From positions 4,576,001-4,640,000 of the forward strand of contig OZ252098.1 in NCBI GenBank assembly GCA_965248355.1: 64,000 bases of DNA, given 5' to 3'. This stretch comes from Candidatus Latescibacterota bacterium (GTDB lineage: Bacteria; Latescibacterota; UBA2968; UBA8231). The translations under genes were made by a program, and so were the position numbers. The notes under the pieces are model-generated. The model was not told where the DNA came from. It worked only from the letters and a program-made list of their open reading frames with translations, and did not search any database. Below, in pieces: positions 1-22,200 of this stretch. Every line of letters starts with the position of its first letter. Positions within the stretch are counted from its first letter, which is position 1.

Positions 1-690
1 ATAGAGGCGGTGCAGCTTGATGCGCGCCTTCTCGGTGGTGAATCGCCATTTGACCGGGGCCTGGCTGTTCTCGCGTTGCGACAGCCAAGCCTGGACCTGT
101 TGGCTCAGTTGCTGAATCGTTGCGATGCGTCGGTCCAGACACTGCCGGGACAGCATCTTCAACCCGATTTCGGCCATGTTGAGCCAACTGCCCCGTTTCG
201 GGGTGAAATGAATGTCGATCTTGTCGGCGATGCGTTTGGCCTCGGCCGGCGCAAAGACATCGTACAACGCCGCCTTCTGGTGCGAACTCAGGTTGTCCAT
301 GACCAAGGTCAGGCGCTCGGCCTCCGGGTAGTAGCGGTCGACCAGGTCTTTCATCACCCGAGCCCAATCTTTCTTGGTGCGCTGCTGCGTGACCTGGACG
401 TGGCAGCGGCCGGTGAGCGGTTCCAGCATCATGAAGACGTTGGCCACGCCCTGGCGGACATAATGATGATCATACCGGGCCGGATGGCCCGGTATCGCCG
501 GCCGAGGGGCCTGCACCTCGCCCACCAGTTGTTTGCTGGTCTCGTCCAGGCAGACCGTGGGATGTTGGGGATCGTAGGGCCGGGTATAGACATCCAGCAC
601 ATCCTCCATGGCACAGACGAAGGCGGCATTGGGGGCGCCCGGCAGGCACCACATTTCCTGCCGCCAGGGCTTCAAGTCGTTTTTTTTAGT
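1..690 (-). CDS. IS630 transposase OrfB (DDE domain), reached by -1 frameshift, runs off the window
   Basis: My translation: KNDLKPWRQEMWC...AFVCAMEDVLDVY...VCLDETSKQL...VMDNLSSH...FTPKRGSWLNMAEIG. Confidence 0.85.
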
Positions 691-1121
691 GTCTTTCGGA
701 CGGTTTCCGGGCTGACCCGGTCGACCACTTCCAAGGCCACCAGGCGGTCGGCCAGCAATCGGAGGGTCCAGCCCTTTCTCCCCTCCGGCGGCGGACTGCA
801 GGCCAGCGCGACGAGACGAGCCTCGCCTTCCCCGTCGATCTTCTTGGCCCGGCGATTCTTCTGCTCCTTGCGCTGCAGGGCGGCCTCCAGGCCTTCTTCG
901 ACGAATCGCCTGCGCAGACGCTCGACCGTGCTGGGATGGACCTCGAGCGCCTGCCCGATCCGTTCGTCGGTCCAGCCCTCTCCCTGCGGTCCTTGATCCG
1001 TCTTCAGGAGAAGGCGCGCATGCCGCTGCTTGAAAGCCGCCGCTTTCCCCTTGGAGATCAGATCGCGCAACCCGGTGCGCTCCTCGGCTGTGAGAGTGAC
1101 GATGTATCTCTTCTTGGGCAA
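672..1121 (-). CDS. IS630 transposase OrfA (HTH DNA-binding part)
   Basis: TTG start at 1121 after GGAG; PKKRYIVTLTAEER...HARLLLKTD...WTLRLLADRLV; ends just after the A8 run at 680-687. Confidence 0.85.
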   Translation of the reverse strand: MPKKRYIVTLTAEERTGLRDLISKGKAAAFKQRHARLLLKTDQGPQGEGWTDERIGQALEVHPSTVERLRRRFVEEGLEAALQRKEQKNRRAKKIDGEGEARLVALACSPPPEGRKGWTLRLLADRLVALEVVDRVSPETVRKTLKKTT

Positions 1122-1210
1122 CGCCGTACTCCTTTTCCAACAAAGGGGATGGGGAAAAAGGATACGGCTGCCACTCTTGTTCCGCAATTCTAAGTGGATT
1201 GACCACTAGT

Positions 1211-2017
1211 ATGCAGGAGGCGCTCGACAGCCTCTCCGACAAGAGTATCCGCCACATCGTCAGCATCTCCGGCGGCAAGGACTCGACAGCTCTCGCCCTG
1301 TACATGCGCCAGAGCTACCCGGAGATTCCAGCGGAGTACGTGTTCTGCGATACCGGCTGCGAGCTGCCCGAGACCTACGAGTACCTGGAACGGCTCGAGG
1401 CTCTGCTAGGTGTGGAGGTGAAGCGGCTCAACGCTCTCGACGACCTGAAGGTGGCGAGAAAGCCCGGGCGCAATCCCTTCGATCTCTATTTGAACGAACT
1501 GTACGGTGGCTTCCTGCCGAACCCTCGGTCCAGGTGGTGCACCCGGGCGCTGAAGATCCAGCCCTTCGAGCGCTTCGTCGGCGACAGCCACGCCTTCAGC
1601 TACATCGGGATCCGCGGCGACGAGGACAGGGAGGGCTACCAGTCCAAGAAGCCCCCGGTCATCTCCCAGCGGCCGAACATCCTGCCGGTGTACCCCTTCA
1701 AAGACGCCGGGATGATCCTGGAGGACATCAAGCGGATACTGACCGAATCCGGCATCGGCATCCCCGGCTACTACCGCTGGCGGTCCCGGTCAGGCTGCTA
1801 TTTCTGCTTCTACCAGCAGGTGGGGGAGTGGCAGAATCTCAAGGAGGTGCACCCCGATCTCTTCGAGAAGGCGATGGGCTACGAGCGGAGCAGCGTTGGC
1901 GATCGAGGATACACCTGGGTCGATGGCCGGCCGCTGCTGAGGATCGCCGAGTTGCCGGAGCGGGAGGAGATCCCCGCACCGGACTTGGCGGAGGGGTGCG
2001 CGGTGTGTCATCTGTAA
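1211..2017 (+). CDS. PAPS-reductase-family protein, SspD/DndC-like (DNA phosphorothioation-associated)
   Basis: PP-loop SGGKDS, DTGxELPE, FLPxPxxRWCT, WRSRSGCYFCFYQ, terminal CxxCHL. ATG at 1211 (the TTG at 1199 lies inside the IS end). Confidence 0.8.
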   Translation: MQEALDSLSDKSIRHIVSISGGKDSTALALYMRQSYPEIPAEYVFCDTGCELPETYEYLERLEALLGVEVKRLNALDDLKVARKPGRNPFDLYLNELYGGFLPNPRSRWCTRALKIQPFERFVGDSHAFSYIGIRGDEDREGYQSKKPPVISQRPNILPVYPFKDAGMILEDIKRILTESGIGIPGYYRWRSRSGCYFCFYQQVGEWQNLKEVHPDLFEKAMGYERSSVGDRGYTWVDGRPLLRIAELPEREEIPAPDLAEGCAVCHL

Positions 2018-2070
2018 GAGAAGGGGAAGGAGAATCCCAACTGACCGACGTCCAACTCACCGTGAAAGAG

Positions 2071-2388
2071 ATGAGGGAGAAACTCACCCATGCCAAGGCC
2101 TCCCTAACCGACGCGGAGGCCGCCCTCATGGACTGGGTGGAAGGCGGACCCCTTACCACCATCAAGGAAGCCTACAAGGGAGTGCTCGACCTGGAAGAGG
2201 CCCTCGACACGGCCACCAACCCCCATCAAGTCACCGCAAGCGTGGACCCGTCCTGTGGTCGCGTCGTCCGCACCGAAGACAATGCGCACCCCGTCATTGT
2301 GTGGTCGATCTTCAAAGGCCCGTACGACGACTCGATCCCTTTTGACAGGCAGGTTCTCGACATCGACGCCAAGGACACCGACGGCTAG
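2071..2388 (+). CDS. Hypothetical protein (about 105 aa; start may be 2041 or 2062)
   Basis: AAGGAG RBS-like site near 2027; protein-like composition; lies between the PAPS reductase and the HNH gene. Confidence 0.5.
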   Translation: MREKLTHAKASLTDAEAALMDWVEGGPLTTIKEAYKGVLDLEEALDTATNPHQVTASVDPSCGRVVRTEDNAHPVIVWSIFKGPYDDSIPFDRQVLDIDAKDTDG

Positions 2389-2668
2389 CCGGCCCACTTC
2401 GAGGACGGAGAATACACTGTCGATGTCGGCGAAGGCTCTCGGGCGCAGGGGATCACCATCAAAGATGGTCGCTTCGACATCGGCCCGACCTGCGATGCCC
2501 TGCACAAGGCGCAAAGCCTGTACTTTGCACACACCAACTACGATCACCGGTTTCTGGAGCACCTGCGCTACAGCCCGGAAAAGGATGTGTTCGTGGCGCA
2601 CTTCGGCAGCTGACAGGTCCGTCCCGAAGGTGGCCTCGCTGGAAGAAGAGCGGCAAGGCCGTAGAGCG

Positions 2669-3574
2669 ATGAATCGCCGGGAATTCCTCCAGAGAATCGA
2701 GCGGATCAACGTCTGGCAGCGACGCGGGGAACGCGCCCCCCACAAGCCCTTGCTATTGCTTCTGGCCCTTGGGCGCGTGCTCCACAGGCGGGAGCGGCTT
2801 GCCGCCTACGAATTGATCGAAGACCAACTGAACAGCCTTCTGCAGAACTTCGGCCCGCCTCGCAAGGCCCGGCACCCGGAGTTCCCCTTCGGTCGCCTTC
2901 CCGCTGACGAACTCTGGGAGGTTCCGGAAAGCGAGACCTTGTCCCGGACTGCGAGCGGGGATCTCCTCGTCGGGGAGCTTCGAGAGCGCGGTGTGAGGGG
3001 TGGTTTTCCAGCTCCGATGCATGACCTTCTGACCGACCACCCGGAAATCGCGAAGGAAGCGGCGCAAAAACTCCTCGACGGGCACTTCCCCGACTCACTG
3101 CACGGCGAGATTCGCGACGCCGTCGGCATTCCTCGTGACTGGGTCGTGCGGGATGCGTCCCTCCCCTCGAGGCGCGACCCGGCCTTTCGCGACAACGTTC
3201 TACGGGAGTACCAGCGCCGTTGTGCCGTCTGTGACTTCGACGTGCGTCTGGGAAGCGATTTGATCGGCCTGGAAGCGGCGCACATCAAGTGGCATGCGTA
3301 CGGAGGTCCTGACGAAGTCGCCAACGGGCTGGCCCTGTGCGGACTGCATCACAAGGCGTTCGATCGGGGCGCGCTCGGCATGAACGCAGACGAAGGAGGA
3401 GGCTACAGGGTGGTCGTCTCAAGTGAAGTCCACGGCCTCAGTGCCCCCGTCCGCTGGTTCCTCGACTACCACGACAAGCCGCTGCAAACACCAAGAAACC
3501 GCGACCTCGGTCCCGCTCCTGAGTTCGTGAAGTGGCATCAGAAGCAGGTCTTCCGCCGCCCGCCACTGACCTGA
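2669..3574 (+). CDS. SBD-HNH phosphorothioated-DNA-binding (type IV) restriction endonuclease
   Basis: N-terminal RAPHKPLLLL and PEFPFGRL (SBD-like HKP and YPFxxL motifs); C-terminal RDPAFR...CAVC...LEAAHIKW...NGLALCGLHHKAFDRG HNH domain. Confidence 0.8.
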   Translation: MNRREFLQRIERINVWQRRGERAPHKPLLLLLALGRVLHRRERLAAYELIEDQLNSLLQNFGPPRKARHPEFPFGRLPADELWEVPESETLSRTASGDLLVGELRERGVRGGFPAPMHDLLTDHPEIAKEAAQKLLDGHFPDSLHGEIRDAVGIPRDWVVRDASLPSRRDPAFRDNVLREYQRRCAVCDFDVRLGSDLIGLEAAHIKWHAYGGPDEVANGLALCGLHHKAFDRGALGMNADEGGGYRVVVSSEVHGLSAPVRWFLDYHDKPLQTPRNRDLGPAPEFVKWHQKQVFRRPPLT

Positions 3575-3591
3575 CTACGAGGGACAACCCA

Positions 3592-4425
3592 ATGCCATAC
3601 ATCGACTCCCACGTGCACATCTGGACCGACGACTACCAGACCTACCCCTTCGCCGAGGGCAGCGACCCCGCCAACGCCAGTCCCCGCACCTTCCACGTGG
3701 AGGACATCCTCGGCCACGCTCGGCCCTGCGGCGTCGACCGCGTCGTGCTGGTGCAGATGAGCTACTACGGCACCGACAACCGCTACATGCTCCAGGCCAT
3801 GGCCGAGGCTCCGGACGTCTTCGGCGGCATCGGCATCGTCGACTGGGACGATCCCGCCGTCGAGGAGGAGATGACGCGCCTCGCCGCGGAGAGGGTTTAC
3901 GGCTTCCGCGTCTATCCGAGGGACGTCCCGACGGAGAGCTGGTGCGACGGCCCCGGCTTCGAGAGGATGTTCGCCGCCGCCGCCCGCCATCGGCTGGCCA
4001 TCTGCCCGCTAATCGCCCCTGACGGCCTGCCGGCCCTGGCGCGGCGCTGCGAGCAGTTCCCCGGCGCGCCCGTCCTCATCGACCACCTGTGCCTCATCGG
4101 CGGCAGGGGCCCTGTCCGGGAAGAGGAGGTGGGGGCCCTGTGCGCCATGGCGCGGTTCGAGAGCGTGATGGTCAAGGTCTCCGCTTTCTACGCTCTGGGC
4201 GAGAAGAAGCCGCCCTACCACGACCTGGCCGGCCTCATCCGGCGGGTCGTCGACGCCTTCGGCCCGCAACGCCTCATGTGGGCCAGCGACGCGCCCTACC
4301 AGGTTCTCGGCGGGCACACCTACGCGGCCAGCGTGGCGCTCATGGAGGAGGGTCTGGACTTCCTGTCCGCCGCCGATCGGGCCGAGATCATGACGGGCAC
4401 GGCGGAGCGGTTCTTCTTTCGGTGA
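3592..4425 (+). CDS. Amidohydrolase family protein (amidohydrolase_2)
   Basis: IDSHVHIW, LIDHL, FGPQRLMWASDAP motifs. Confidence 0.9.
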   Translation: MPYIDSHVHIWTDDYQTYPFAEGSDPANASPRTFHVEDILGHARPCGVDRVVLVQMSYYGTDNRYMLQAMAEAPDVFGGIGIVDWDDPAVEEEMTRLAAERVYGFRVYPRDVPTESWCDGPGFERMFAAAARHRLAICPLIAPDGLPALARRCEQFPGAPVLIDHLCLIGGRGPVREEEVGALCAMARFESVMVKVSAFYALGEKKPPYHDLAGLIRRVVDAFGPQRLMWASDAPYQVLGGHTYAASVALMEEGLDFLSAADRAEIMTGTAERFFFR

Positions 4426-5067: not shown

Positions 5068-6339
5068 TCACTCCACCTCGGGAGGCACCTGGCTCGGATC
5101 CTCTCCGTTGAAGGCGACGCTCAGGAGAATGATGGAAGAGTACGGGCGATAGGGGTTGGCGGTGTCCTCGGTCCGACGCCACCGGGTGGGCCACAGGACG
5201 CCCTGGATCTCCTCGTACTTCTCGAAGCGGGTGGTCCAAGTCGGACTCTTCCTGCGCTGATGGCCCCGCTGGGCTCTGAACCACTCCGCTTCCCTCTCCG
5301 ACAGCTCTTCTTCCACGGCCACGAGCAGGGCGTCATCCGCATCGAAGTGGGCCAGGAAGGTGCGGCCGAACTTCCGGTCATCGACGTGCACGGATTGCAC
5401 GGAACGGCCATCGAAGGTCCCCGTGCCGGCGTATCGCAGCTGCACTCCCTCGCCGAGGAACCGGTGGGCGAAGTTCCAGCGCTCGCCCTCCGATCGCTCC
5501 CGGTAGGTCCGGCTCCAAGGAGGGGAGGACCGCCACCGCCCCTCGAAGAATCGGAAGAAGGCCCCAACCTCGTAGTAGGGGACCATCGTGGTCAGGCTGG
5601 GGAAGACCCCCTCCCGGGTGTAGGGCATGCGCTCCCAGGGTTCGGCGCTGCCGGCCTCGAAGCGCCAGACGGACACGGGATGGGCATAGGCGGGCACTCT
5701 GTGGACATAGGGGCGCTCCCCTTTGGCGGTTGGGGGCCGATAGCGGGTCGTAGCCTGAACCCACACCACGGCGGCCATGGAGTGGAGGGCCTCGAGCCGG
5801 TCCACGCCGCCCATGGCGTTCAGGCACGCCAGGACGATCTGGCGAGCTCTTCTGGCGGGGGCGCTCTCCGGATCGGTCGGGTCGGCGTCCGGCACCCACA
5901 GCCGCGCATAGGCGTCGCGTTCCTCCATGGGAAAGGAGGGCCCGAGGTCCTGGGCCTGGACTTCGGTCGTATCCGTCGCCGGCAGCCGGCTCTCGAAGGG
6001 ACGGTGCCGCCCACCCACCTCGATCGGTCCCGCCAAGGTGTCCCCCGGTGCCCCACGCGGCGCGACACTGTCGGAGACGGTGGAGGTGACGGCATCCACG
6101 GCGAGGGACAGATCCGGCATTCGGCCCGCCACCCTCTTCATGGCCGGAGAGTCGGCTTCCGGCTCGGGACCGGAGAGGCGAGGAGCGGAGGGGGCTTTGG
6201 GAGCGCGGAAGAAGGGAAGGTGGCTGGGTGAGGGCGAGGGTGCGATCAGATGGTACACGAGCAGAAGCAGCAGGTGCAGACCCGCGGACAGGAGGAGGGA
6301 GAGGCCGAGTCTGAGCCTGCCCGGGGTCCGATACCGCAT
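5068..6339 (-). CDS. Membrane-anchored hypothetical protein, C-terminal half possibly LolA-like
   Basis: N-terminal TM (LSLLLSAGLHLLLLLV), Pro-rich linker, AMGGVDRL and FEKYEEIQGVLWP segments; paralog at about 31.3-32.4 kb. Confidence 0.7.
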   Translation of the reverse strand: MRYRTPGRLRLGLSLLLSAGLHLLLLLVYHLIAPSPSPSHLPFFRAPKAPSAPRLSGPEPEADSPAMKRVAGRMPDLSLAVDAVTSTVSDSVAPRGAPGDTLAGPIEVGGRHRPFESRLPATDTTEVQAQDLGPSFPMEERDAYARLWVPDADPTDPESAPARRARQIVLACLNAMGGVDRLEALHSMAAVVWVQATTRYRPPTAKGERPYVHRVPAYAHPVSVWRFEAGSAEPWERMPYTREGVFPSLTTMVPYYEVGAFFRFFEGRWRSSPPWSRTYRERSEGERWNFAHRFLGEGVQLRYAGTGTFDGRSVQSVHVDDRKFGRTFLAHFDADDALLVAVEEELSEREAEWFRAQRGHQRRKSPTWTTRFEKYEEIQGVLWPTRWRRTEDTANPYRPYSSIILLSVAFNGEDPSQVPPEVE

Positions 6340-6349
6340 TGGCCTTCCG

Positions 6350-6943
6350 TCACCGATCGCCGGGGGACCTGGCGGCCAGCGCCTTGTAAGCGGAGGTGAT
6401 GGTCTCTTCCAGCAAGTGCTTCAGCTCGACGGGCGGACCGGAAGGGTAGCGAGTCCCCTTGGCGGCGATCACCTCCGAGTGAAGACGGTCTCCCGTCTCA
6501 ACCTGTCGCAATAGGAGCCGCGTGGAGAGAGTGGCCTCCACCCCGGGCGTACGGACCAGGTCACGCACCTCGAAACCTTGGACCGTGAGGGTGAGTTCAT
6601 AACGGCCGAGCCAGTCCGAGTTCCGCAACGCCCCACGGGTGATCCTGGCGCGGAGTCCTTCGAGGATGCGGACGTGCAGGTCCTGCAGTTCCTCATCCAG
6701 CCGCTTGGACTGCTCGTCCCCGAAGGCCGTCTCCAGGATCGCCGGCCGGATGACCGCCAGGTCCTGCACCAGGCCTTCCCAGTCCCGGGAGGGGCAGTAG
6801 GCGTTGACAGCCCACACCACGAGGCCCTGGGAGAGGGAGTCCCGGACCGTGATCCCCAGGCTGTCGGCCTTGGTGGTCTCCGCGGCGGCGGTTAGGGGCT
6901 GGGCAAGGGCCACTGCAAGGGCTGCGGCTGCGGGGAGGATCAT
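6350..6943 (-). CDS. Secreted hypothetical protein
   Basis: Signal peptide MILPAAAALAVALAQPLTA; 10 bp upstream of the next gene; paralog at about 32.4-32.9 kb. Confidence 0.65.
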   Translation of the reverse strand: MILPAAAALAVALAQPLTAAAETTKADSLGITVRDSLSQGLVVWAVNAYCPSRDWEGLVQDLAVIRPAILETAFGDEQSKRLDEELQDLHVRILEGLRARITRGALRNSDWLGRYELTLTVQGFEVRDLVRTPGVEATLSTRLLLRQVETGDRLHSEVIAAKGTRYPSGPPVELKHLLEETITSAYKALAARSPGDR

Positions 6944-7004
6944 GGGAGGCAGGCGCCCGGCGGACGAAGCACAGGACAAACACTTCGTGGGGGAGCTGCC
7001 CCCG

Positions 7005-7110: not shown

Positions 7111-8534
7111 GGCATTGTCCCGATCTTAGTTGAAATAGCACAGGCTCCCATCGTTACGTTTGATACGAGAAATCCCCAAGAAGCCTCGTATCGGTAACCC
7201 AAGGAGCCTGCCATGAGCAAGCTACAAGCACGGAAGAAGGGCGTCAAACGGACCGTGGCCATCGGCCCCGTGAACCGCCAAGCCACCGCGTCGATGGACG
7301 ATCTGGAGACTCGCATCGAGGTCATCCAGCTGCTGATCCCTTTGGGTCTGCAGGCGGTCTCGGAGGAGCTGCAGCAGTCGGTCGAGGCCTTGGCCGGACC
7401 TCGGTATCAGCGCAAGGGTCCGGATCAGGCGTTGCGCCGCTGGGGGGCGCAGGCCGGGTCGGTGTACCTGGGCGATCAGAAACTGCCGGTCGAGGTGCCG
7501 CGCGTGCGCGATGTGGTCCGCGGCACCGAGGTCCCGCTGGAGGCCTATCAGGCCCTGCAGACGCCGAGGCAGATGGACCAGGGGCTGTTGTTGCGGGTGC
7601 TGAAGGGCCTGGCCACGCGCAACTACGAGGCCTGCGCCGAGACCGTCCCGCAAGCCTTCGGTCTGTCCCGTTCCTCGGTCTCTCGCCGGTACGTGAAAGG
7701 CACGGCGCGCAAGCTGGCCGAATTCCAGCAGCGATCCTTGGAAGGCTACGACCTGGTGGCGCTGTTTCTGGACGGCAAGAGCTTCGCCGACGAGGAGATC
7801 CTCATCGCCCTGGGTGTGACTCTGGAGGGCCAGAAGGTGCCCTTGGGCTTCGTGCAGGCGGCCACCGAGAACGAGCGCGTCTGTCGCCGCTTCCTGGCGG
7901 AGCTGGTCGAGCGGGGCCTGCAATACGAAGCCGGGCTGCTCGTGGTGATCGATGGAGGCAAGGGCCTGTACAAGGCGGTGCGGTCGGTGCTTCAAGGCCA
8001 TGCCTGCGTGCAGCGATGCCAGTATCACAAGCGCCAGAACGTGGTCTCGTACCTGCCCAAGAGCGAGCAGGCCGGCCTTCGTCGAAAGCTGGAAGCGGCG
8101 TATGGGCACTCGACGTACGAGGAGGCCCAAGCCGCCCTGGAGGCGCTGAAACCGGGGTTGCAGTTGATGAACCAGTCGGCCCTGCGCAGCTTGGAGGAAG
8201 GCCAGCAAGAAACCCTCACGCTCCACCGCCTGGGCCTGATGCCGATGCTGAAGGCCTCCTTCCGTACCACCAACTGTATCGAGAACGTCAACAGTCTCCT
8301 GGAGCAGTTGACGCACAACGTGCGGCGCTGGACCAACTCGTCGCAGCGTCACCGCTGGGTCGCCACGGCGTTGCTTGACATCGAACCTCGCCTCCGCCGG
8401 GTCAACGGCTACCACCACCTGCCGATGCTCCGGCAAGCGCTCCAAGCCGAGCTCGGCATCCAGCAGCTCGCGATGACGGGCTGACTCATCCACTCGAGCC
8501 TGGGCTACGTTTCAACTGAGAATGGGACTTGCCC
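7111..8534 (+). mobile_element. IS256-family insertion sequence, complete
   Basis: Imperfect 25-bp terminal IRs (GGCATTGTCCCGATCTTAGTTGAAA / TTTCAACTGAGAATGGGACTTGCCC); 8-bp target duplication CTTCGGAA at 7103-7110 and 8535-8542. Confidence 0.92.
7213..8484 (+). CDS. IS256-family (Mutator-type) transposase
   Basis: LFLDGK, VVIDGGKGL, QRCQYHK, RTTNCIENVN motifs; AAGGAG RBS. Confidence 0.95.
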   Translation: MSKLQARKKGVKRTVAIGPVNRQATASMDDLETRIEVIQLLIPLGLQAVSEELQQSVEALAGPRYQRKGPDQALRRWGAQAGSVYLGDQKLPVEVPRVRDVVRGTEVPLEAYQALQTPRQMDQGLLLRVLKGLATRNYEACAETVPQAFGLSRSSVSRRYVKGTARKLAEFQQRSLEGYDLVALFLDGKSFADEEILIALGVTLEGQKVPLGFVQAATENERVCRRFLAELVERGLQYEAGLLVVIDGGKGLYKAVRSVLQGHACVQRCQYHKRQNVVSYLPKSEQAGLRRKLEAAYGHSTYEEAQAALEALKPGLQLMNQSALRSLEEGQQETLTLHRLGLMPMLKASFRTTNCIENVNSLLEQLTHNVRRWTNSSQRHRWVATALLDIEPRLRRVNGYHHLPMLRQALQAELGIQQLAMTG

Positions 8535-8736
8535 CTTCGGAAGCTGCGCATGCTCAATCGGTCAACTGCGCTGGGGGATCTTCGAGTGCCCCTGGCCAAT
8601 CGTCTTGAGAAACTCCGTGGTGATCGGTCAGGCCAGTACAGTATTCGAGTCAATGACCAGTGGCGAATCTGTTTCGAGTGGCACAACGACGATGCCTACA
8701 ACGTTGAGATCGTCGACTACCACTAAGGAAGGGTTT

Positions 8737-9042
8737 ATGCCTGCACAGAAGCTGGCTCCTGTTCATCCGGGAGACGTCCTGCTGGAGGAGTTCCTCAAGC
8801 CGATGGACCTCAGCCAGAACCGCCTGGCCCTGGCCATAGGAGTGCCGCCCCGGCGCATCAACGAGATCGTCCTGGGCAAGCGGGGCATCTCCGCCGATAC
8901 GGCCCTGCGTCTGGCCCGCTACTTCGGCATGTCGTCCCAGTTCTGGATGGGCCTTCAGATGGACTATGAGCTGGATGTAGCCGAAGACGAACTGTCTGAT
9001 CGTCTGGACCGCGAGGTGCGGCCCCACGTGGAGGCTGTGTAA
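8737..9042 (+). CDS. higA: HigA antitoxin (HTH-XRE)
   Basis: PVHPGDVLLEEFLKP...RINEIVLGKRGISADTALRLARYFG...FWMGLQ. Confidence 0.93.
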   Translation: MPAQKLAPVHPGDVLLEEFLKPMDLSQNRLALAIGVPPRRINEIVLGKRGISADTALRLARYFGMSSQFWMGLQMDYELDVAEDELSDRLDREVRPHVEAV

Positions 9043-9051
9043 GCGGGCCCG

Positions 9052-10131
9052 TCAGACCGCCCCGCGGGCGATATCCCCCACCAACTGCACGTCGTGGCGG
9101 GCCTCCGCCAGCGGCGTGCGGCAGGTCTCCCCCTCGGTCACGCAGGCGTGGAAGTGGCGCAGCTCGGCGGCGAAGGGGCTCTCCCAGTCGACGGCGGGCC
9201 GGCGCTCGAAGGGCTCGCCCTCCTCTGAGACCCCGCGGATCACCACTTCGCTCAGCTGCCCCCGGGAGAACCCCGTCGGATAGGACAGGATCACGCCGCG
9301 GTCCGGTCCGTAGACCTCCAGGGTCTCGCGGAAGTGGCGGATGCGCTCCAGCTCCACCCAGGTGGCGGCGCAGCGCAGGCCGCCGGCCCACCCGAGGATG
9401 GTGCTGATCCCCAGTCCGTCGTTCCAGATCTCGGTGGCCGCCACGCGCTCCGGCGGCCCGAAGAGGTGGCGCAGTCCGTAGAGGTCGTGGATCATGCTGC
9501 CGGCCAGGTGGAAGAAGGCGGAACGCGCGGGGCCGGGGGCGTCGCCGAGGGCGCGGGCGGCGTCGGCGTTCCGGAGGGAGGCCGCCTCCCGGAGGGCCGA
9601 GCCGGGCAGGTCGCCGGCGCGCCGCAGCCTGAAGTGGGCCAGGTGGTGGCGGTTGTCGGTGTGCAGGTGGTTCACCTGGGCGAAGCGCAGCTCCGGCCCC
9701 ATGCCCTCCACCTCGCGCTCCAGCAGCCGGAAGGCGGGATCGTAGAGCTTCATGTACGCGGCCTGGGCCACGACCCCGGCGCCGGCGGCGGCCTGGGCCA
9801 TGCGGTCCACGTCTTCCGGGACGAAGGCCACGGGCTTCTCGATGAGCAGGTGGCGGCCGGACTCCAGGACGGCGAGGGCGGCGCCCACCTTGGGGTCGGA
9901 CTGGCACAGCAGGACGGCGTCGAGGTCGGCGTCCAACAGGTCGCGCAGATCCGTGAACCAGGCGGGGACGTGGTACTCCTCGGCGGCGGAGCGGGCCAGC
10001 GTCTCGGACAGGTCGCAGAGGCCGGCGATCTCGAACTCCTCGCCCAGGAAGGCGAGGTTGGGCAGGTGCTGCACCTGGGCCACGGCGCCGCAGCCGACGA
10101 CGCCGATCCGCAGCCGGCGCGCCGCGCTCAT
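9052..10131 (-). CDS. Gfo/Idh/MocA-family oxidoreductase
   Basis: IGVVGCGAVA Rossmann motif, HLLIEKP; ATGA overlap with the cupin gene. Confidence 0.9.
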   Translation of the reverse strand: MSAARRLRIGVVGCGAVAQVQHLPNLAFLGEEFEIAGLCDLSETLARSAAEEYHVPAWFTDLRDLLDADLDAVLLCQSDPKVGAALAVLESGRHLLIEKPVAFVPEDVDRMAQAAAGAGVVAQAAYMKLYDPAFRLLEREVEGMGPELRFAQVNHLHTDNRHHLAHFRLRRAGDLPGSALREAASLRNADAARALGDAPGPARSAFFHLAGSMIHDLYGLRHLFGPPERVAATEIWNDGLGISTILGWAGGLRCAATWVELERIRHFRETLEVYGPDRGVILSYPTGFSRGQLSEVVIRGVSEEGEPFERRPAVDWESPFAAELRHFHACVTEGETCRTPLAEARHDVQLVGDIARGAV

Positions 10132-10779: not shown

Positions 10780-11967
10780 TCAGTATTTCCCGATAGCGGC
10801 AAAGTCGATTTCGATCGTCGAGTCCTCCATCTCGGCAGCAGCCGAAACGCGGATGAAGCCCATCTCTGCCAGCCGGATCAGTTCCCGCCAAAGCGTCCGG
10901 CGCTTGACATCCTTGTAGACGGCCTGGACGTAGGGCGCCTGGACCAGTTCGGAGAGTCCGATCTTCCTGGACGGGGCATCGGAGAATGGATCGACAGGCT
11001 CCGTTTCCTTCAGCAGGAAATCGAGCAGACCGTACTCCCGGGTGTTGAGGACGCGGCGGCGCTTCCCCGCGCGTTGCTCCAGGGCCCTGACCATGGTGTC
11101 CCTGTAGACCAGGCGGTTGAGCTTGGCCTTGATGAAGTCGTTGATCCCCCGCAACTCGGCCGCGAAGCCCCTGATGCCGAAGGCCACGAAGGCGGTCAGG
11201 TCGAAGGGCTGCGCGCGCCTGCTCTGCTGAAGGAGCCGCTTGTACTCGTCTGCGTTGCGGTAGAAGAAGTTCGACAGTCCGTAGAATCCCAGCACGTTGT
11301 ACCCCCCTTGGAAGAGAATGCCGGCCTCGACCAGCCTGGAGACTCTCCCGTTCCCGTCGCCGAAGGGATGGATCGTCACCAGGAAGAAGTGGGCTAGCAA
11401 GGCCCGAACCACGGGGTGTTGATCCAGGCAGCGTTTCGAGTTCACGAACTCCACGAACTCGTCCATGAGCCTGGGCAGGTCCTCCGGGGAGACTCCTCGA
11501 TGCACGCCGCCCAGTTCCGGAGTCCCGACGACGACCCGGTGCGTCCTCAGTCGCCCCGGGACGTTGTCCTTCTCATCGGATCCTTCTGTGAGACGTTCGT
11601 GCAGGTAGAGGATGTCCGAGAGTTGGAGAGGTGCGCTGCCGGGCGTGAGCCTCTCCCTGACCCACGCCTGAGCCAACCCTGCGTTGCGCACCTGGCGCTG
11701 CTCCATGGACTGGTTCGCGGGCGGCTCCGAAGACTCCTCAAGATGTTCCATCTGCTGGCGCACTTCGGCTTCCGTCAGAGGGTTCCCCTCGAGGGCGGTC
11801 GTTCCGCGGACCGCACGCACACGATTCAACTGGTCCAACTGTTCCCTCCAGGGCGGAGGGAGGACCAAGTTGAGCGCCGACTGTTTGTAGGCCTCGATCT
11901 CGATCAGATCGGAGGGCAGGCTCTCGATCTGGATAGAGTATTCGAATCGGAATCGTCTCCAGTCCAT
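10780..11967 (-). CDS. Fic-domain protein (class II, auto-inhibitory helix)
   Basis: Catalytic HPFGDGNGRVSR; N-terminal TTALEGN matches (S/T)xxxE(G/N). Confidence 0.92.
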   Translation of the reverse strand: MDWRRFRFEYSIQIESLPSDLIEIEAYKQSALNLVLPPPWREQLDQLNRVRAVRGTTALEGNPLTEAEVRQQMEHLEESSEPPANQSMEQRQVRNAGLAQAWVRERLTPGSAPLQLSDILYLHERLTEGSDEKDNVPGRLRTHRVVVGTPELGGVHRGVSPEDLPRLMDEFVEFVNSKRCLDQHPVVRALLAHFFLVTIHPFGDGNGRVSRLVEAGILFQGGYNVLGFYGLSNFFYRNADEYKRLLQQSRRAQPFDLTAFVAFGIRGFAAELRGINDFIKAKLNRLVYRDTMVRALEQRAGKRRRVLNTREYGLLDFLLKETEPVDPFSDAPSRKIGLSELVQAPYVQAVYKDVKRRTLWRELIRLAEMGFIRVSAAAEMEDSTIEIDFAAIGKY

Positions 11968-15984: not shown

Positions 15985-16233
15985 GGCGTCGCAGCGCGGG
16001 CAGCGCATCTTGATCCCGCGCTCATGGTCCACGTAGACATCGACCCGCTCCTGTTCTTGGAACCGCATCTCGAGCACGATCCAGGGGCGCTCGATTCGCA
16101 GCAGACGGGGTGTAGAACTGCTTGAGGTCGTCCATGGGCGGCACTTCCCGGTGAGGGTGGCAGGGCACTTCGATGGACGGACCCTATGATACCACAACAT
16201 CTTGGGGGGTCCCCACGCCTACCCGGATGAGCC
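15985..16233 (-). mobile_element. ISL3-family remnant (left end plus frameshifted transposase N-terminus) cut by IS630
   Basis: End GGCTCATCCGGG at 16233 (minus); MDDLKQFY/LLRIERPWIV...VDVYVDH...MRCPRC zinc-finger start. Confidence 0.6.
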
Positions 16234-16256
16234 ATTATTCGTTACGTGTGTGGTCC

Positions 16257-19200
16257 TCAGAAGGGAATTGACATACGCAGCAGCAGTCCGTGGTCGAACC
16301 GACCCGTTGTGCTTTCTCGCCTCTGGCCTTCCAATTCAAACGTCGCCGGCAGCGCGAGTTGGGGGCGAGCGGTCAGGCTCCAAGCGGTCCCCAAGGCGAG
16401 TTCACGACCCTGCCCTGCCCATCGCAGCCAGCTATAGGGCGTCAGCAGACCCGGCAAGCCCAGCGCCTTCATGCCGGCGTAAGCCACCTCGCCTTCCATC
16501 CGGTACCGGGACCCTATCCCCATCGCCCGCATCCCCGCTGGGCGCATGACGGCATCCGCGTTGTCCCACAGCGTTGTCCGTCCGCCGGCATCCTGGCCCC
16601 GCGAGGGCTTCACCGATACCCTGAACCCGCGCTGCTTCTCGCCCGGGTCCCAGCTTGCCTGCCCGCCCACTCCCCAGTTCCGGTAGTCGCTTTCATGCAC
16701 CACCAGCACCCGGCCGTGCAGCGCCACGTCCAGTCCAAGGTTCGCATCCAGGTACCCCAGACGGAAACCGGTCTCCACGCCGCTGCCCCGATCCGCATCG
16801 CCCCCATCGAAACGCCCGCCGGCCTCCGCCTTCAGGCTCAGTGATCCCCCCGCTGACAGCGCCTTGTCGTGCACCCATTCCAGCATCAACCGGCCCCGGT
16901 GGGCCTCGCCGCTCACCTTCGCGATGTCCTCCGAGGCGTCGGTCTCGAGTCGCGTCGTGATGGCATCCGCGCGCAGACCCCATTCACTGTCACCCCGCCT
17001 GTTCAACACCGCCCTCATTCCCCCAGCGAACATCCGAAAGTCGGCATCGAAGCCGTAAGTCCCGCCCGGCTCCGTGACATCCAATTGACCTACCCCCAAG
17101 CCGCCAATGCCCCACATGCTCATCCGTTCGCTCGGCTGCCAGTACAGATACGGGTGAACCGTGTTCATGCGACTTTCCAGCGCCCCATCTACTCCATCGT
17201 CGGTGTAATCCAGGTCCCCCCAGCCGCGCATGAAAGACAGCCCGGCGAGCATCCGCTCGTTGGCAGGGAGATCCAGCCCGACGTGAGCGGCTTGGAGACC
17301 TCCTCGATAGTCCATCCCGGTCCGCGTCAAGTCCCCGTTGAAGTGCCGCAGATCCCCCTGTCCCCACAACACCGGAACCCAGTTCGTCTGCTCTTCACTC
17401 TCTCCCGGGGACATCTCGAAGGAGACCCCCGACAGGCTGAGCTCTCGATCCCTCATCCCTGAGAAGTCCCCCGATCCCGGTCCCAGCGGCGCGTCTCCGA
17501 TTCCAGAAGCATTTTGTCGATCCTGCCCGTAGACTCTCCCACTCGGCTCCATACCGGAGCCGGGAGAGGCGCCCAAGTGCGTTTGGTCTGAGCGTACGAA
17601 GTTCCCCAACGAACCCAGCGAGAAACTCCGCAGCCACGATCCTGGCGTGCCTGTTTCCCGATTCTCCGAGTTCCAACCGGATCCGGTTGGAACTCTGGTC
17701 TTGGCGGTGCCCAGAGCGCTCTGCACCAAGGAGCCTTCCGATTCTCTGCCGCCGGCGTCCTCGCTGCCTGTCCGCTTTGAATCTCCCGGGCTCAGAGTCG
17801 TGGCGCTATTGTCCCTCCCCGGCTGCGGTGTCGGCATCGCGCCAACCGATGGCCTCGATCGACTTCGTTGGCGATGCCGCTCAAATCGATCCTCTATCGC
17901 CGCCTGCGCGCTCTCCCCCATCGAGCGCGCGATCACCGCTTCCATCACCTCCAGCGTTTGCGAGAACTGCTCCGCCATCCGCCGCTGCGCGAAATGCACC
18001 TGGGTCGCGGAGGGATCGCCCGCATTGACCGCTTCCGGCAACTCGCCCAGGCTCAGCACAATTCCCTCGCCGGGATCGTTCACTTCATCCGCCAGAACCG
18101 CTACGGGAATCGTCTCCTCACTCTCGCCTTCCCCGAACACCACCGACGCCGGCACCCCGCTATAGTCCTCGGGCGTCGTCCCGTTTTGGAACACCACCAC
18201 CAGCGGGACTTCCACTCGCCGGTTCGCCGCCGGCGACATCTTCATTTCGATGCCGGCCCGCTGGCCTTCCTTAACCTCGTACTCCGCCTGACCAAAACTC
18301 ACCTCCAGCACCACCCGGTCGTCGTCCACCAGCGTCACCGTCGTCGTCGCCGAGCTCCCCGCTCTGACATCCACGTCCCCGCTGGCCGGGTCGAGCGGCA
18401 CCGTCGTTTTCGCCTGGCTCCCCGCAGTGACATCCGCGGGCAGCGTGCCGAAGCGCAGCTCGACCGCCTCGTCATCGAGGTCCGCGTCGTCGATCGCCGT
18501 CACCGTGATCGTCTTCGCCTCATCCCCCACCGCAAAGACCACCTGCGTCGCCGACAGGGAAAAGTCCCCGCTCGCGGGCTCGGTCTTCAGCGGCACCGTC
18601 ACTTCCCGGTCCGCGGCCTGGTCCAGGGCCACCGTCACCGTGGCATCGTCGCCGTTCTCCGTGGCCGTGTAGGACGCCGCGGCGAACATCACCATCAGCG
18701 GCGCCCGGGGCGTCGCACTCACCGGGGCCGACGCCGCGCCGGTTCCCGAGGCGTTCAGCGCCCGCACCCTGAAGGTGTAGGCGGTGCCGTTGGTCAGACT
18801 CGTTACCGTGTGGCCGGTGGTGTCGGCGCCGCTGCCGCTGATCTCGATGTAGTCGCCCCCGTCGCGGCTCAGCTCATAGCCGCTGATGCTGCTGTTGCCG
18901 GGGTCGGTCCAGCTCAGGGCCACCTGCCCGTCACCCGGCGCCGCACTCAGCCCCGCCGGCGCCTCCGGCACCGCCAACGGCGTCGCACTCACCGCGGCCG
19001 ACGCCGCCCCGGTTCCTGAGGCGTTCACCGCCCGCACCCTGAACGTGTAGGCGGTGCCGTTGGTCAGACTCGTTACCGTGTGGCCGGTGGTGCCGGCGCC
19101 GCTGCCGCTGATCTCGATGTAGTCGCCCCCGTCGCTGCTCACCTGGTAGCCGCTGATGCTGCTGTTGCCCGGGTCGGTCCAGCTCAGGGCCACCTCCCCG

Positions 19201-22200
19201 TCACCCGGCGCCGCCCTCAGCGCCTCCGGCACCGCCGGCGCCGCCAACGGCGTCGCACTCACCGGGGCCGACGCCGCCCCGGTTCCCGAGGCGTTCAGCG
19301 CCCGCACCCTGAACGTGTAGGCGGTGCCGTTGGTCAGGCCCGTCACCGTGTAATCGGTCGTCTCGTCGTCGCTGCCGCTGATCGGGCTGTAGCTCGTGCC
19401 GTCGTCGCTGCTCACCTGGTAGCCGCTGATGCTGCTGTTGCCCGGGTCGGTCCAGCTCAAGGCCACCTCCCCGTCACCCGGCGCCGCACTCAGCCCCGCC
19501 GGCGCCTCCGGCACCGCCAGCGGCGTCGCACTCACCGGGGCCGACGCCGCCCCGGTTCCCGAGGCGTTCACCGCCCGCACCCTGAAGGTGTAGGCGGTGC
19601 CGTTGGTCAGACTCGTTACCGTGTGGCCGGTGGTGCCGGCGCCGCTGCCGCTGATCGTGTCGTAGGAACTGCCGTCGTCGCTGCTCACCTGGTAGTCGCT
19701 GATGCTGCTGTTGCCGGGGTCGGTCCAGCTCAGGGCCACCTCCCCGTCACCCGGCGCCGCCCTCAGCCCCGCCGGCGCCTCCGGCACCGCCAACGGCGTC
19801 GCACTCACCGCGGCCGACGCCGCCCCGGTTCCCGAGGCGTTCACCGCCCGCACCCTGAACGTGTAGGCGGTGCCGTTGGTCAGGCCCGTCACCGTGTAAT
19901 CGGTCGTCTCGTCGTCGCTGCCGCTGATCTCGATGTAGTCGCCCCCGTCGCGGCTCAGCTCATAGCCGCTGATGCTGCTGTTGCCGGGGTCGGTCCAGCT
20001 CAGGGCCACCTGCCCGTCACCCGGCGCCGCCCTCAGCCCCGCCGGCGCCGCCGGCACCGCCAGCGGCGTCGCACTCACCGGGGCCGACGCCGCCCCCTTC
20101 CCCGAGGCGTTCACCGCCCGCACCCTGAAGGTGTAGGCGGTGCCGTTGGTCAGACTCGTTACCGTGTGGCCGGTGGTGCCGGCGCCGCTGCCGCTGATCG
20201 TGTCGTAGGAACTGCCGTCGTCGCTGCTCACCTGGTAGCCGCTGATGGTGCTGTTGCCGGGTTCGGTCCAGCTCAGGGCCACCTGCCCGTCACCCGGCGC
20301 CGCACTCAGCCCCGCCGGCGCCTCCGGCACCGCCAGCGGCGTCGCACTCACCGGGGCCGACGCCGCCCCGGTTCCCGAGGCGTTCAGCGCCCGCACCCTG
20401 AAGGTGTAGGCGGTGCCGTTGGTCAGACTCGTTACCGTGTGGCCGGTGGTGCCGGCGCCGCTGCCGCTGATCGTGTCGTAGGAACTGCCGTCGTCGCTGC
20501 TCACCTGGTAGTCGCTGATGGTGCTGTTGCCGGGGTCGGTCCAGCTCAGGGCCACCTCCCCGTCACCCGGCGCCGCCCTCAGCCCCGCCGGCGCCTCCGG
20601 CACCGCCAACGGCGTCGCACTCACCGCGGCCGACGCCGCCCCGGTTCCCGAGGCGTTCAGCGCCCGCACCCTGAAGGTGTAGGCGGTGCCGTTGGTCAGA
20701 CTCGTTACCGTGTGGCTGGTGGTGCCGGCGCCGCTGCCGCTGATCGGGCTGTAGGAACTGCCGTCGTCGCGGCTCACCTGGTAGCCGCTGATGCTGCTGT
20801 TGCCCGGGTCGGTCCAGCTCAGGGCCACCTGCCCGTCACCCGGCGCCGCACTCAGCCCCGCCGGCGCCTCCGGCACCGCCAGCGGCGTCGCACTCACCGG
20901 GGCCGACGCGGCCCCGGTTCCCGAGGCGTTCACCGCCCGCACCCTGAAGGTGTAGGCGGTGCCGTTGGTCAGACTCGTTACCGTGTGGCCGGTGGTGCCG
21001 GCGCCGCTGCCGCTGATCGTGTCGTAGGAACTGCCGTCGTCGCTGCTCACCTGGTAGCCGCTGATGCTGCTGTTGCCGGGGTCGGTCCAGCTCAGGGCCA
21101 CCTGCCCGTCACCCGGCGCCGCACTCAGCCCCGCCGGCGCCTCCGGCACCGCCAGCGGCGTCGCACTCACCGGGGCCGACGCCGCCCCGGTTCCCGAGGC
21201 GTTCACCGCCCGCACCCTGAAGGTGTAGGCGGTGCCGTTGGTCAGACTCGTTACCGTGTGGCCGGTGGTGCCGGCGCCGCTGCCGCTGATCGTGTCGTAG
21301 GAACTGCCGTCGTCGCTGCTCACCTGGTAGCCGCTGATGCTGCTGTTGCCGGGGTCGGTCCAGCTCAGGGCCACCTGCCCGTCACCCGGCGCCGCCCTCA
21401 GCCCCGCCGGCGCCTCCGGCACCGCCAGCGGCGTCGCACTCACCGGGGCCGACGCGGCCCCGGTTCCCGAGGCGTTCAGCGCCCGCACCCTGAAGGTGTA
21501 GGCGGTGCCGTTGGTCAGACTCGTTACCGTGTGGCTGGTGGTGCCGGCGCCGCTGCCGCTGATCGGGCTGTAGGAACTGCCGTCGTCGCGGCTCACCTGG
21601 TAGCCGCTGATGCTGCTGTTGCCGGGGTCGGTCCAGCTCAGGGCCACCTGCCCGTCACCCGGCGCCGCACTCAGCCCCGCCGGCGCCGCCGGCACCGCCA
21701 GCGGCGTCGCACTCACCGGGGCCGACGCCGCCCCGGTTCCCGAGGCGTTCACCGCCCGCACCCTGAACGTGTAGGCGGTGCCGTTGGTCAGGCCCGTCAC
21801 CGTGTAATCGGTCGTCTCGTCGTCGCTGCCGCTGATCTCGATGTAGTCGCCCCCGTCGCTGCTCACCTCGTAGCCGCTGATGCTGCTGTTGCCCGGGTCC
21901 GTCCAGCTCAGGGCCACCTGCCCGTCACCCGGCGCCGCACTCAGCCCCGCCGGCGCCTCCGGCACCGCCAACGGCGTCGCACTCACCGCGGCCGACGCCG
22001 CCCCCTTCCCCGAGGCGTTCACCGCCCGCACCCTGAACGTGTATTCGGTGCCGTTGGTCAGGCCCGTCACCGTGTAATCGGTCGTCTCGTCGTCGCTGCC
22101 GCTGATCTCGATGTAGTCGCCCCCGTCGCTGCTCACCTCGTAGCCGCTGATGCTGCTGTTGCCCGGGTCCGTCCAGCTCAGGGCCACCTCCCCGTCACCC

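Follow-up and report, generated by a model that had tools for sequence, protein, structure and literature searches.

A predicted phosphorothioate-dependent nuclease behind a broken Ssp operon, and recurrent loss of writer genes in related loci

The nuclease discussed here has its closest described relatives among type IV enzymes in which a sulfur-binding domain (SBD) is joined to an HNH nuclease domain. One of these, ScoMcrA, is incompatible with the phosphorothioate (PT) modification genes dnd (PMC3009677), and SBD homologues restrict transfer of the dnd cluster (PMC6224610). For PT-dependent enzymes that lie near dnd clusters, Lutz et al. considered as possible reasons that the writer is mutated, that the nuclease is inactive or that the sequence contexts differ (PMC7461809). 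In Ssp systems, whose PT genes we call the writer, SspC-type ATPase activity and SspB nicking are reported to be essential for PT synthesis (PMC12914056, PMC8092258); in BREX (bacteriophage exclusion) type 4, BrxP is a fusion of SspD and SspB, and BrxC is a homologue of SspC (PMC12914056). Here we describe a locus at the start of a 64,000-nucleotide stretch of bacterial DNA, the window (G000:C1:4576001-4640000, part of one single 5.5-Mb contig; the genome is 95.7% complete), in which a gene for an SBD-HNH nuclease, the reader, stands behind the writer gene sspD, with a small gene, orfX, between the two. We lean towards regarding the reader as a lone predicted type IV nuclease beside a disabled writer, and the pattern in related loci as one of antagonism rather than partnership, because writer deletions are concentrated in reader-bearing loci and occurred there in independent events.

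The operon at this locus, labelled OWN, extends beyond the window. Upstream lie sspA, a cysteine desulfurase gene (genome positions 4573823-4575010) 75-87% identical to the sspA of relatives, and sspB, a DUF4007 gene (4575013-4575879; 209 bits). They are followed by a ~70-bp remnant of sspC, an insertion sequence (IS), sspD, orfX with a nonsense codon, and the reader. The genes sspA and sspB are thus adjacent, as in a complete SspABCD operon, and sspC is absent. The remnant aligns to the first ~15 and the last few sspC codons of a relative, L006. SspC has no match to the profiles PDLC02781 and PDLC02779 in the whole 5.5-Mb genome, and a tblastn search of that genome with the L006 SspC found nothing at E 0.01. 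No other PT writer was found there: DndD was not detected, and the sole other clear PAPS reductase, at 3.535 Mb, is CysH-like (161.7 bits). Of the upstream partners that the first-pass annotation had looked to, the cysteine desulfurase and DUF4007 genes are in place and the ATPase gene, sspC, has been deleted. Since sspC is gone from the genome and is reported to be essential for PT synthesis, the writer is predicted to be inactive.

The sspD gene (1211..2017, + strand, starting at 1199 or 1211) has an intact coding frame of 268-272 aa. Judged by profile scores, its product, P0001, is SspD-like and not CysH, because the PADLOC SspD match (299.9 bits, E 5e-90) far exceeds those to DndC (E 1e-5 only) and to the CysH-type profile NF002537 (22 bits against a cut-off of 154, E 7.6e-5); this agrees with the earlier assignment. 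P0001 also matches Pfam PAPS_reduct (48.8 bits) and is 95-97% identical to its counterparts in L006-L011. The functional motifs of SspD-type proteins are an SGGKDS PP-loop and C-terminal cysteine pairs. P0001 contains SISGGKDS, and both S20-S25 and the cysteines C196, C199, C263 and C266 are invariant in 35 relatives.

The 1238-bp IS lies on the - strand at positions 1..1209 and begins 28 bp before the window (blast edges at genome positions 4575972-4577209). Its helix-turn-helix (HTH) and DDE_3 transposase frames match Pfam HTH_32/HTH_23 and DDE_3, and we take it to be a member of the IS630 family. One other copy in the genome, at 3.827 Mb, matches it at 100% identity, and two further copies do so at 99.7-99.8%. 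The insertion site is a CTAG inside codons 2-3 of sspD, where the protein of relatives starts with MASMQ; the IS therefore cuts sspD away from the three codons with which it originally began, and from the operon upstream.

The reader (2669..3574, + strand) encodes P0002, a protein of 301 aa with an intact frame. P0002 matches the NCBIfam family NF045808, 'phosphorothioated DNA-binding restriction endonuclease', with 314.5 bits against a cut-off of 180 and over profile positions 2-284 of 284, and it matches Pfam HNH_2 with 40.7 bits. Its N-terminal 140 residues align to the structure of the ScoMcrA SBD (5zmo, E 2.9e-9). The layout is a sulfur-binding winged-helix domain at about residues 1-150 and an HNH domain at about residues 170-297, whose catalytic and zinc-binding residues C185, C188, H205, N219, C224, H227 and H228 each recur in 82-83 of 83 reader relatives. 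An SBD-HNH endonuclease on the + strand behind sspD, with one small open reading frame (ORF) between, had been recognized from the letters alone, and these matches confirm it. A longer ORF, 2255-3574, was considered as the gene and ruled out; relatives start at the ATG at 2669.

Relatives of SspD were taken as the best 80 of 548, on contigs of one genome per species, and make 81 loci with OWN. Most have the order sspA, sspB, an sspC of ~3.3 kb and sspD. In a scan of 101 ORFs from 70 loci, what follows sspD is usually a PT-sensing partner, known or candidate: SspE in 5 loci, SspF/G/H in 11, a strong PbeA in 4 and a DndB-like protein in 9. By gene order, it is this effector slot behind sspD that the window reader occupies.

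Among the eight closest loci (SspD identity at least 91%), only L006 has all four writer genes whole. Its slot contains an unknown gene, a DndB-like gene and an AbiGi-like gene, and no reader. L012 has all four genes with a premature stop in sspD, and its contig ends 390 bp past sspD. OWN, whose slot has the broken orfX and the reader, has an sspC deletion junction in common with L007, in which the slot gene joins an SBD-like domain to a NOV_C nuclease, and with L009, in which orfX is followed by a gene for an HNH_4 protein. L011 has another sspC deletion, with boundaries differing from those in OWN, and a frameshifted reader. The genomes of L007, L009 and L011 are without SspC anywhere. L008 and L010 have kept sspC and have a 3' deletion of sspB in common, to which a frameshift and a stop were added in L008 and a second deletion in L010; both carry an intact reader.

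Two details of these loci may be recorded. In L007, from a relative of the same genus, residues 33-154 of the slot protein (8858-9937, +) match the SBD part of NF045808 (E 3e-5) and its C-terminus is a NOV_C domain (PADLOC PDC-S36, 175 bits), which places a sulfur-binding-like domain on a different nuclease. The sspD stop in L012 (~8772) falls ~13-14 codons before the normal end, with loss of the last Cys pair.

The association between readers and writer loss holds across the wider set. With a profile of the SBD part built from the 83 reader relatives, an SBD domain was found within 8 kb of sspD in 9 of the 81 loci (OWN, L007, L008, L010, L011, L033, L062, L063 and L068). Six loci cut by contig ends (L028, L030, L039, L040, L064 and L084) were excluded, leaving 75 assessable. 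Eleven loci with SspC in two frames (L027, L032, L038, L043, L057, L062, L065, L076, L078, L080 and L083) were not scored as broken, because many of them come from long-read assemblies, where an apparent frameshift may be an error; the reader is absent from 10 of these 11. On this basis most or all of sspB and/or sspC has been lost in 8 of the 75 loci (OWN, L007, L009, L011, L008, L010, L023 and L033). Loss affects 6 of the 9 loci with an SBD nuclease and 2 of the 66 without one, and the Fisher p of 1e-5 overstates the case, as relatives are not independent. Counted as events, there are at least six independent deletions beside readers and one (L023) in a locus without a reader.

Two further observations were made on the two-frame loci. 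The SspC frame switch occurs at the same place in the related pairs L027/L032 (near 6890) and L065/L076 (near 6620-6640), and is either a common frameshift or a natural split into two genes. L038 has a second, partial sspD at 10963-11202 (query residues 187-268, one stop), downstream of a DndB-like gene.

The adjacency of reader and sspD could also be meaningless: a variable slot in a defence island would have caught a type IV nuclease by chance, and an orphan writer without an effector would decay neutrally. The slot after sspD is indeed highly variable, even at 92-97% SspD identity, the island carries IS copies and toxin-antitoxin-like genes, and 83.9% of sspBCD modules are reported to be without a known partner (PMC8092258). 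An SBD nuclease near sspD in 9 of 81 loci, however, contrasts with SBD homologues in ~5% of species genome-wide (PMC6224610), and nine occurrences within 8 kb are far above random placement. Chance likewise does not account for deletions that are concentrated in reader loci (6/9 against 2/66), nor for the writer remnants, which are not evolving neutrally. We regard chance adjacency as distinctly unlikely.

A survey of 76 genomes of the window's taxonomic family gives a similar picture. The reader profile was found in 14 genomes, with an intact copy in 10, SspD in 24 and SspC in 20. In genomes with sspD, a writer gene has been deleted in 6/6 that have an intact reader and in 2/17 that do not (p 3e-4; G032, whose sspD is a fragment at a contig end, was left out, and 10 of the 15 genomes called complete were checked for sspA and sspB). 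In three genomes that have both sspC and sspD, namely G043, G055 and G044 (sspA/sspB checked in the first two), every reader is broken and lies elsewhere in the genome. An independent replicate comes from another genus, where G027 and G034 have ssp genes of a different subtype and a reader of another lineage, the SspD being 47% identical to that of the window and the reader 42% identical and low in GC3 (G+C content at third codon positions). Their order is sspC, sspD, reader, and sspA-sspB have been deleted with boundaries that differ between the two genomes. Their siblings G042, G043, G051 and G055, with no reader at the locus, have kept sspA-D, with AAA and DndB-like genes behind them. A reader without SspD is found in three further genomes of the phylum. 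A side observation concerns G013, the genome of L011, which has a second intact reader elsewhere (L187, 7118-8410) with an extra HNH fragment adjoining it.

Neighbouring sspD and SBD-HNH genes, whose co-occurrence was the natural check on the first-pass annotation, recur in L008, L010 and L011 and, independently, in G027/G034, L033 and L124. The reader is downstream of sspD on the same strand in OWN, L008, L010, L011 and G027/G034. In L033 an ORF and a reader divergent to sspD replace sspB-sspC, and in L124 the reader is upstream of sspD on the same strand, with no other ssp gene on the 8.7-kb contig. Most readers, as seen from the reader side, live apart from PT writers: among the best 80 of 398 metagenome loci found with the reader, many of them short, 75 have no ssp or dnd-like neighbour, and sspD adjoins the reader in L124 alone. 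L122, L129 and L106 have weak Dnd-like neighbours, and L141 has an sspA-like gene upstream. When 84 readers were placed on a tree, OWN, L008 and L010 grouped together in a clade (Shimodaira-Hasegawa-like approximate likelihood ratio test 99). L086-L088, the nearest to this clade, lack ssp neighbours, and the remaining ssp-adjacent readers branch elsewhere on the tree. The association of sspD with a reader has thus arisen several times, since ssp-adjacent readers are scattered on this tree. The linked PT module proposed earlier survives as a recurring physical linkage and not as a working pair of writer and reader, the writer being disabled in the window genome. The more specific proposal of a working writer paired with an adapted reader is not supported, with sspC deleted, an IS in the start of sspD and a writer gene lost nearly wherever a reader adjoins.

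We propose the following course of events. A PT writer and a PT-dependent nuclease could not both have been active in one cell. The reader would have taken the place behind sspD that is normally held, in Ssp operons, by a PT-sensing effector, and lineages with a reader in the slot would have survived or gained by deleting an essential writer gene. In the window genome the writer beside the reader, with sspC missing and an IS in the start of sspD, would now be inactive, and the intact SBD-HNH reader would act on its own, as a type IV enzyme that attacks incoming DNA bearing sulfur marks. The reader is under purifying selection even after writer loss: the ratio of nonsynonymous to synonymous substitution rates (dN/dS) is 0.12, at a synonymous rate (dS) of 0.40, between the readers of L008 and L010, both already without an intact sspB, and 0.12 is also given for the window reader against these two.

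The IS and the nonsense codon of orfX would be later, strain-specific hits. Contigs from four public run sets were placed on window positions 900-3600: X1, which may be the source sample, and X5, X7 and X9, from three other studies. The contigs of X5, X7 and X9 run from position 1206 into sequence other than the IS. One X9 contig covers 1982-3253, so that the order sspD end, orfX, reader is found in another strain. T at position 2386, the first letter of the orfX stop, is seen only in X1; X5, X7 and X9 have C, and orfX is intact there. The IS insertion and the orfX stop are recent lesions of the window strain.

The leftover writer genes do not behave as expected. The mutual divergence of OWN, L007 and L009 must postdate the sspC deletion because they have one junction in common, and the junction remnant itself has diverged by 9-15%. 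Among these three loci dN/dS is 0.24-0.31 for sspA, 0.16-0.27 for sspB and 0.03-0.06 for sspD (dS 0.14-0.47). Between L008 and L010, after sspB decay, it is 0.20 for sspA, 0.19 for sspC and 0.06 for sspD (dS about 0.25). The corresponding values for L006 against L012, with four genes present, are 0.23 for sspA, 0.13 for sspB, 0.17 for sspC and 0.09 for sspD (dS 0.12-0.68). All frames in these comparisons are open. The sspB pseudogene remnants of L008 and L010 were tried as a neutral control and rejected as too short (~66 codons).

These values are the first of several points that weigh against the conflict reading. The leftover genes are still under purifying selection after the deletions, about as in the intact L006 and L012, and this does not fit a simple dead writer, whose genes would be expected to drift. 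Parsimony also implies that, for some time, a full writer coexisted with the reader in the ancestors of L008/L010/L011 and of G027/G034. Some loci combine the two today: in L068 the writer is intact and a reader lies 7.4 kb away, in L063 the writer is likewise intact, SspE is present and a reader-like gene (173 bits, below the cut-off) adjoins sspA, and L062, with a reader beside sspA, has a single frameshift in sspC as its only lesion. Recognition by the reader of the single-stranded CpsCA mark of Ssp is putative. The genomes behind these comparisons are nearly all metagenome assemblies, from which plasmids may have dropped out.

The constraint on the remnants would be accounted for if a reduced writer (SspA and SspD, with SspB or SspC) and the reader were a selected working unit in which the nuclease reads the sulfur product of the writer. 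Such a unit might mark DNA for cutting or sense self marks, and loss of a canonical gene would be part of the rewiring. The C-terminal domain of SspE is an HNH-type nuclease. The reader, with a PT sensor and an HNH domain, parallels SspE in outline, selection on the remnants is as strong as in intact operons, and sspD and reader directly adjoin each other in at least four arrangements of independent origin (same-strand downstream, upstream, divergent). Other nucleases, moreover, stand behind the same sspA-sspB-sspD set, namely SBD with NOV_C in L007 and HNH_4 in L009. Against this, the lineages keep unlike subsets of the writer (A-B-D, A-C-D, C-D and A-D) and not one defined machine, and the window strain has taken further hits, in the start of sspD and in orfX. 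We know of no activity of SspA and SspD alone on DNA. SspB nicking and the SspC ATPase, one or other of which such a unit would do without, are each among the activities reported as essential (PMC8092258, PMC12914056). On balance a working unit seems rather unlikely, and it is slightly less likely again that the cut-down writer, SspA and SspD with one of SspB and SspC, is kept by selection as the reader's partner and so represents a new kind of PT defence unit.

A different partnership is suggested by the slot itself. The reader might be an SspE-like effector of a writer that still works, binding host PT as a self signal and cutting unmarked invaders. It stands in the exact slot of SspE, SspF/G/H, strong PbeA and DndB-like genes. 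Two published arrangements favour such a role and add to the case against conflict. Genes for wHTH-SAD-HNH proteins lie directly downstream of dnd modification genes in 698 taxa, where they are proposed as restriction partners (PMC10853773), and a BREX type 4 locus, for which brxC is required, makes PT with an mcrA gene inside it (PMC12914056). The window genome, however, has no sspC. At least six independent writer deletions have occurred beside readers and would have been lethal or useless if the nuclease needed self marks, and purifying selection on the reader persists after the writer is lost. SspE is built from a DUF262 NTPase and a DUF1524 nuclease. P0002 has neither this architecture nor the profile: no SspE model is among its PADLOC matches at E 0.01, Pfam shows HNH_2 only, and a PADLOC search of the window locus found no SspE, SspF, SspG or SspH. 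This role for the reader is very unlikely.

The predicted PT-binding pocket of the reader has been compared with that of ScoMcrA, whose H116, R117, Y164 and P165 correspond to H25, K26, F72 and P73 of P0002. The cavity residues H25, K26 and P73 are present in 82/83, 83/83 and 83/83 relatives. The lid position, F72 in P0002, is more variable, with Y in 45, F in 13, H in 11 and E in 7 of the 83. According to Liu et al., Tyr164 is conserved in just 7 of 23 homologues and the change Y164F reduces binding by ScoMcrA by 65%, while most homologues have Lys at the position of Arg117 and R117K is without appreciable effect on binding (PMC6224610). The motif FPFGRL had been put forward as a pocket retuned to coexist with the host writer. 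It is present as noted, but EFPFGRL is found in L087/L088 as well as in OWN, L008 and L010, and neither L087 nor L088 has an ssp gene within 10 kb; a Phe lid, with 13 of 83, is also no rarity. As far as the residues can tell, nothing marks the pocket as specially adapted to an Ssp host.

The small gene orfX (about 2003/2071..2613, + strand; ~190 aa, no known family) is interrupted by a TAG at 2386-2388. It is a real gene, because five full-length homologues of 190-202 aa exist; they start ~10-22 codons further upstream. The TAG replaces a Gln codon (CAG) of relatives, L009 among them; P0008 has Lys here. The product has no Pfam, NCBIfam or PADLOC match, and an AlphaFold2 model from 6 sequences (mean predicted local distance difference test score 49.5) was too poor for a fold search. 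A lead to unnamed viral clusters (Protein Atlas, 0.88-0.90) was weak, with recognition below the mark, and was left unused. Gating of the nuclease by this ORF, as once suggested, is difficult to maintain: orfX is broken in the window strain and absent from L008, L010 and L011, in which the nuclease directly follows sspD.

The surroundings of the operon can be summarized briefly. An Rfam scan of the 2.5 kb upstream of sspA gave no match, and a scan of window positions 900-3800 gave no promoter-like sites and terminator-like sites at chance level. In the region 2-3.5 kb upstream of sspA (L169), a lower-GC stretch between a sulfatase-like gene and sspA contains a weak HicB-like/UPF0150-like ORF (390-806, -), below the Pfam cut-off, and one for a DUF6941 protein (1088-1468, -; 106 bits). 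On the other side, a HigB-like toxin ORF (60.8 bits) followed by an HTH_3 protein (8529-9039, +) is likely to be a type II toxin-antitoxin pair, with the ssp remnant a few kb away. The island has a second kind of mobile element, a transposase of the Mutator family (Transposase_mut, 124.8 bits; 7213-8484, +). Two conserved ORFs of 422 and 208 aa (5068-6339, - and 6350-6979, -), with no Pfam match, flank the island in OWN and L006. Further into the window, positions 16001-28000 have a GC of 0.64-0.74, with a GC skew that stays negative throughout and an AT skew that is strongly negative (to -0.30).

In open-access papers and preprints, supplementary tables apart, we found no description of an SBD-HNH gene that occupies the effector slot of an Ssp operon, nor of repeated loss of writer genes beside SBD-HNH readers. 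The loci described here would provide natural-history evidence, from Ssp systems, for a clash between writer and reader that has so far been shown in the laboratory for Dnd systems, and the pattern contrasts with comparative work in which HNH nucleases next to PT writers are proposed as partners. If the conflict reading is true, two-domain readers recognize, or at least do not tolerate, Ssp-type marks, and the closeness of defence genes can be the trace of a conflict and not only of cooperation. Annotation pipelines in which sspD and sspB suffice for a call of 'Ssp' or 'PT modification' would then over-call. That the leftover writer genes are still constrained poses a concrete puzzle, one suited to bench experiments.

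The locus can be set beside four described arrangements. The first are the SBD-HNH type IV enzymes (SprMcrA, EcoWI and seven others in PMC7461809; the ScoMcrA SBD, PDB 5ZMO). The window reader has their two-domain layout, scores above the NF045808 cut-off and keeps the cavity His, Lys and Pro. It differs from ScoMcrA in having Phe for Tyr164 and Gly for Trp167, both variants found in other family members, and in being without an SRA domain. It also lies directly behind sspD, whereas <3.6% of such enzymes are near dnd clusters (PMC7461809). The second are SspABCD-SspE and SspABCD-SspFGH. Here the window has strongly similar sspA, sspB and sspD in the canonical order, with a nuclease in the effector position, but it lacks sspC and SspE/F/G/H and has an IS in the start of sspD, and its slot gene belongs to a family that cuts PT-DNA rather than sparing it. 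The third are the Dnd loci with wHTH(SBD), SAD(SRA) and HNH domains of Krishnan et al. (2024), in which, as here, a PT writer is followed on the same strand by a PT-binding HNH nuclease. Theirs is a Dnd writer with a three-domain nuclease that includes SRA (PMC10853773), whereas the window has an Ssp writer and a two-domain nuclease, and an Ssp writer beside a reader has lost a gene in nearly every case. The fourth is the BREX type 4 set brxP-mcrA-brxC of Bacteroides salyersiae, where an McrA-like gene stands among writer genes homologous to those of Ssp (PMC12914056); the window, unlike that locus, is without an ATPase of the BrxC/SspC type.

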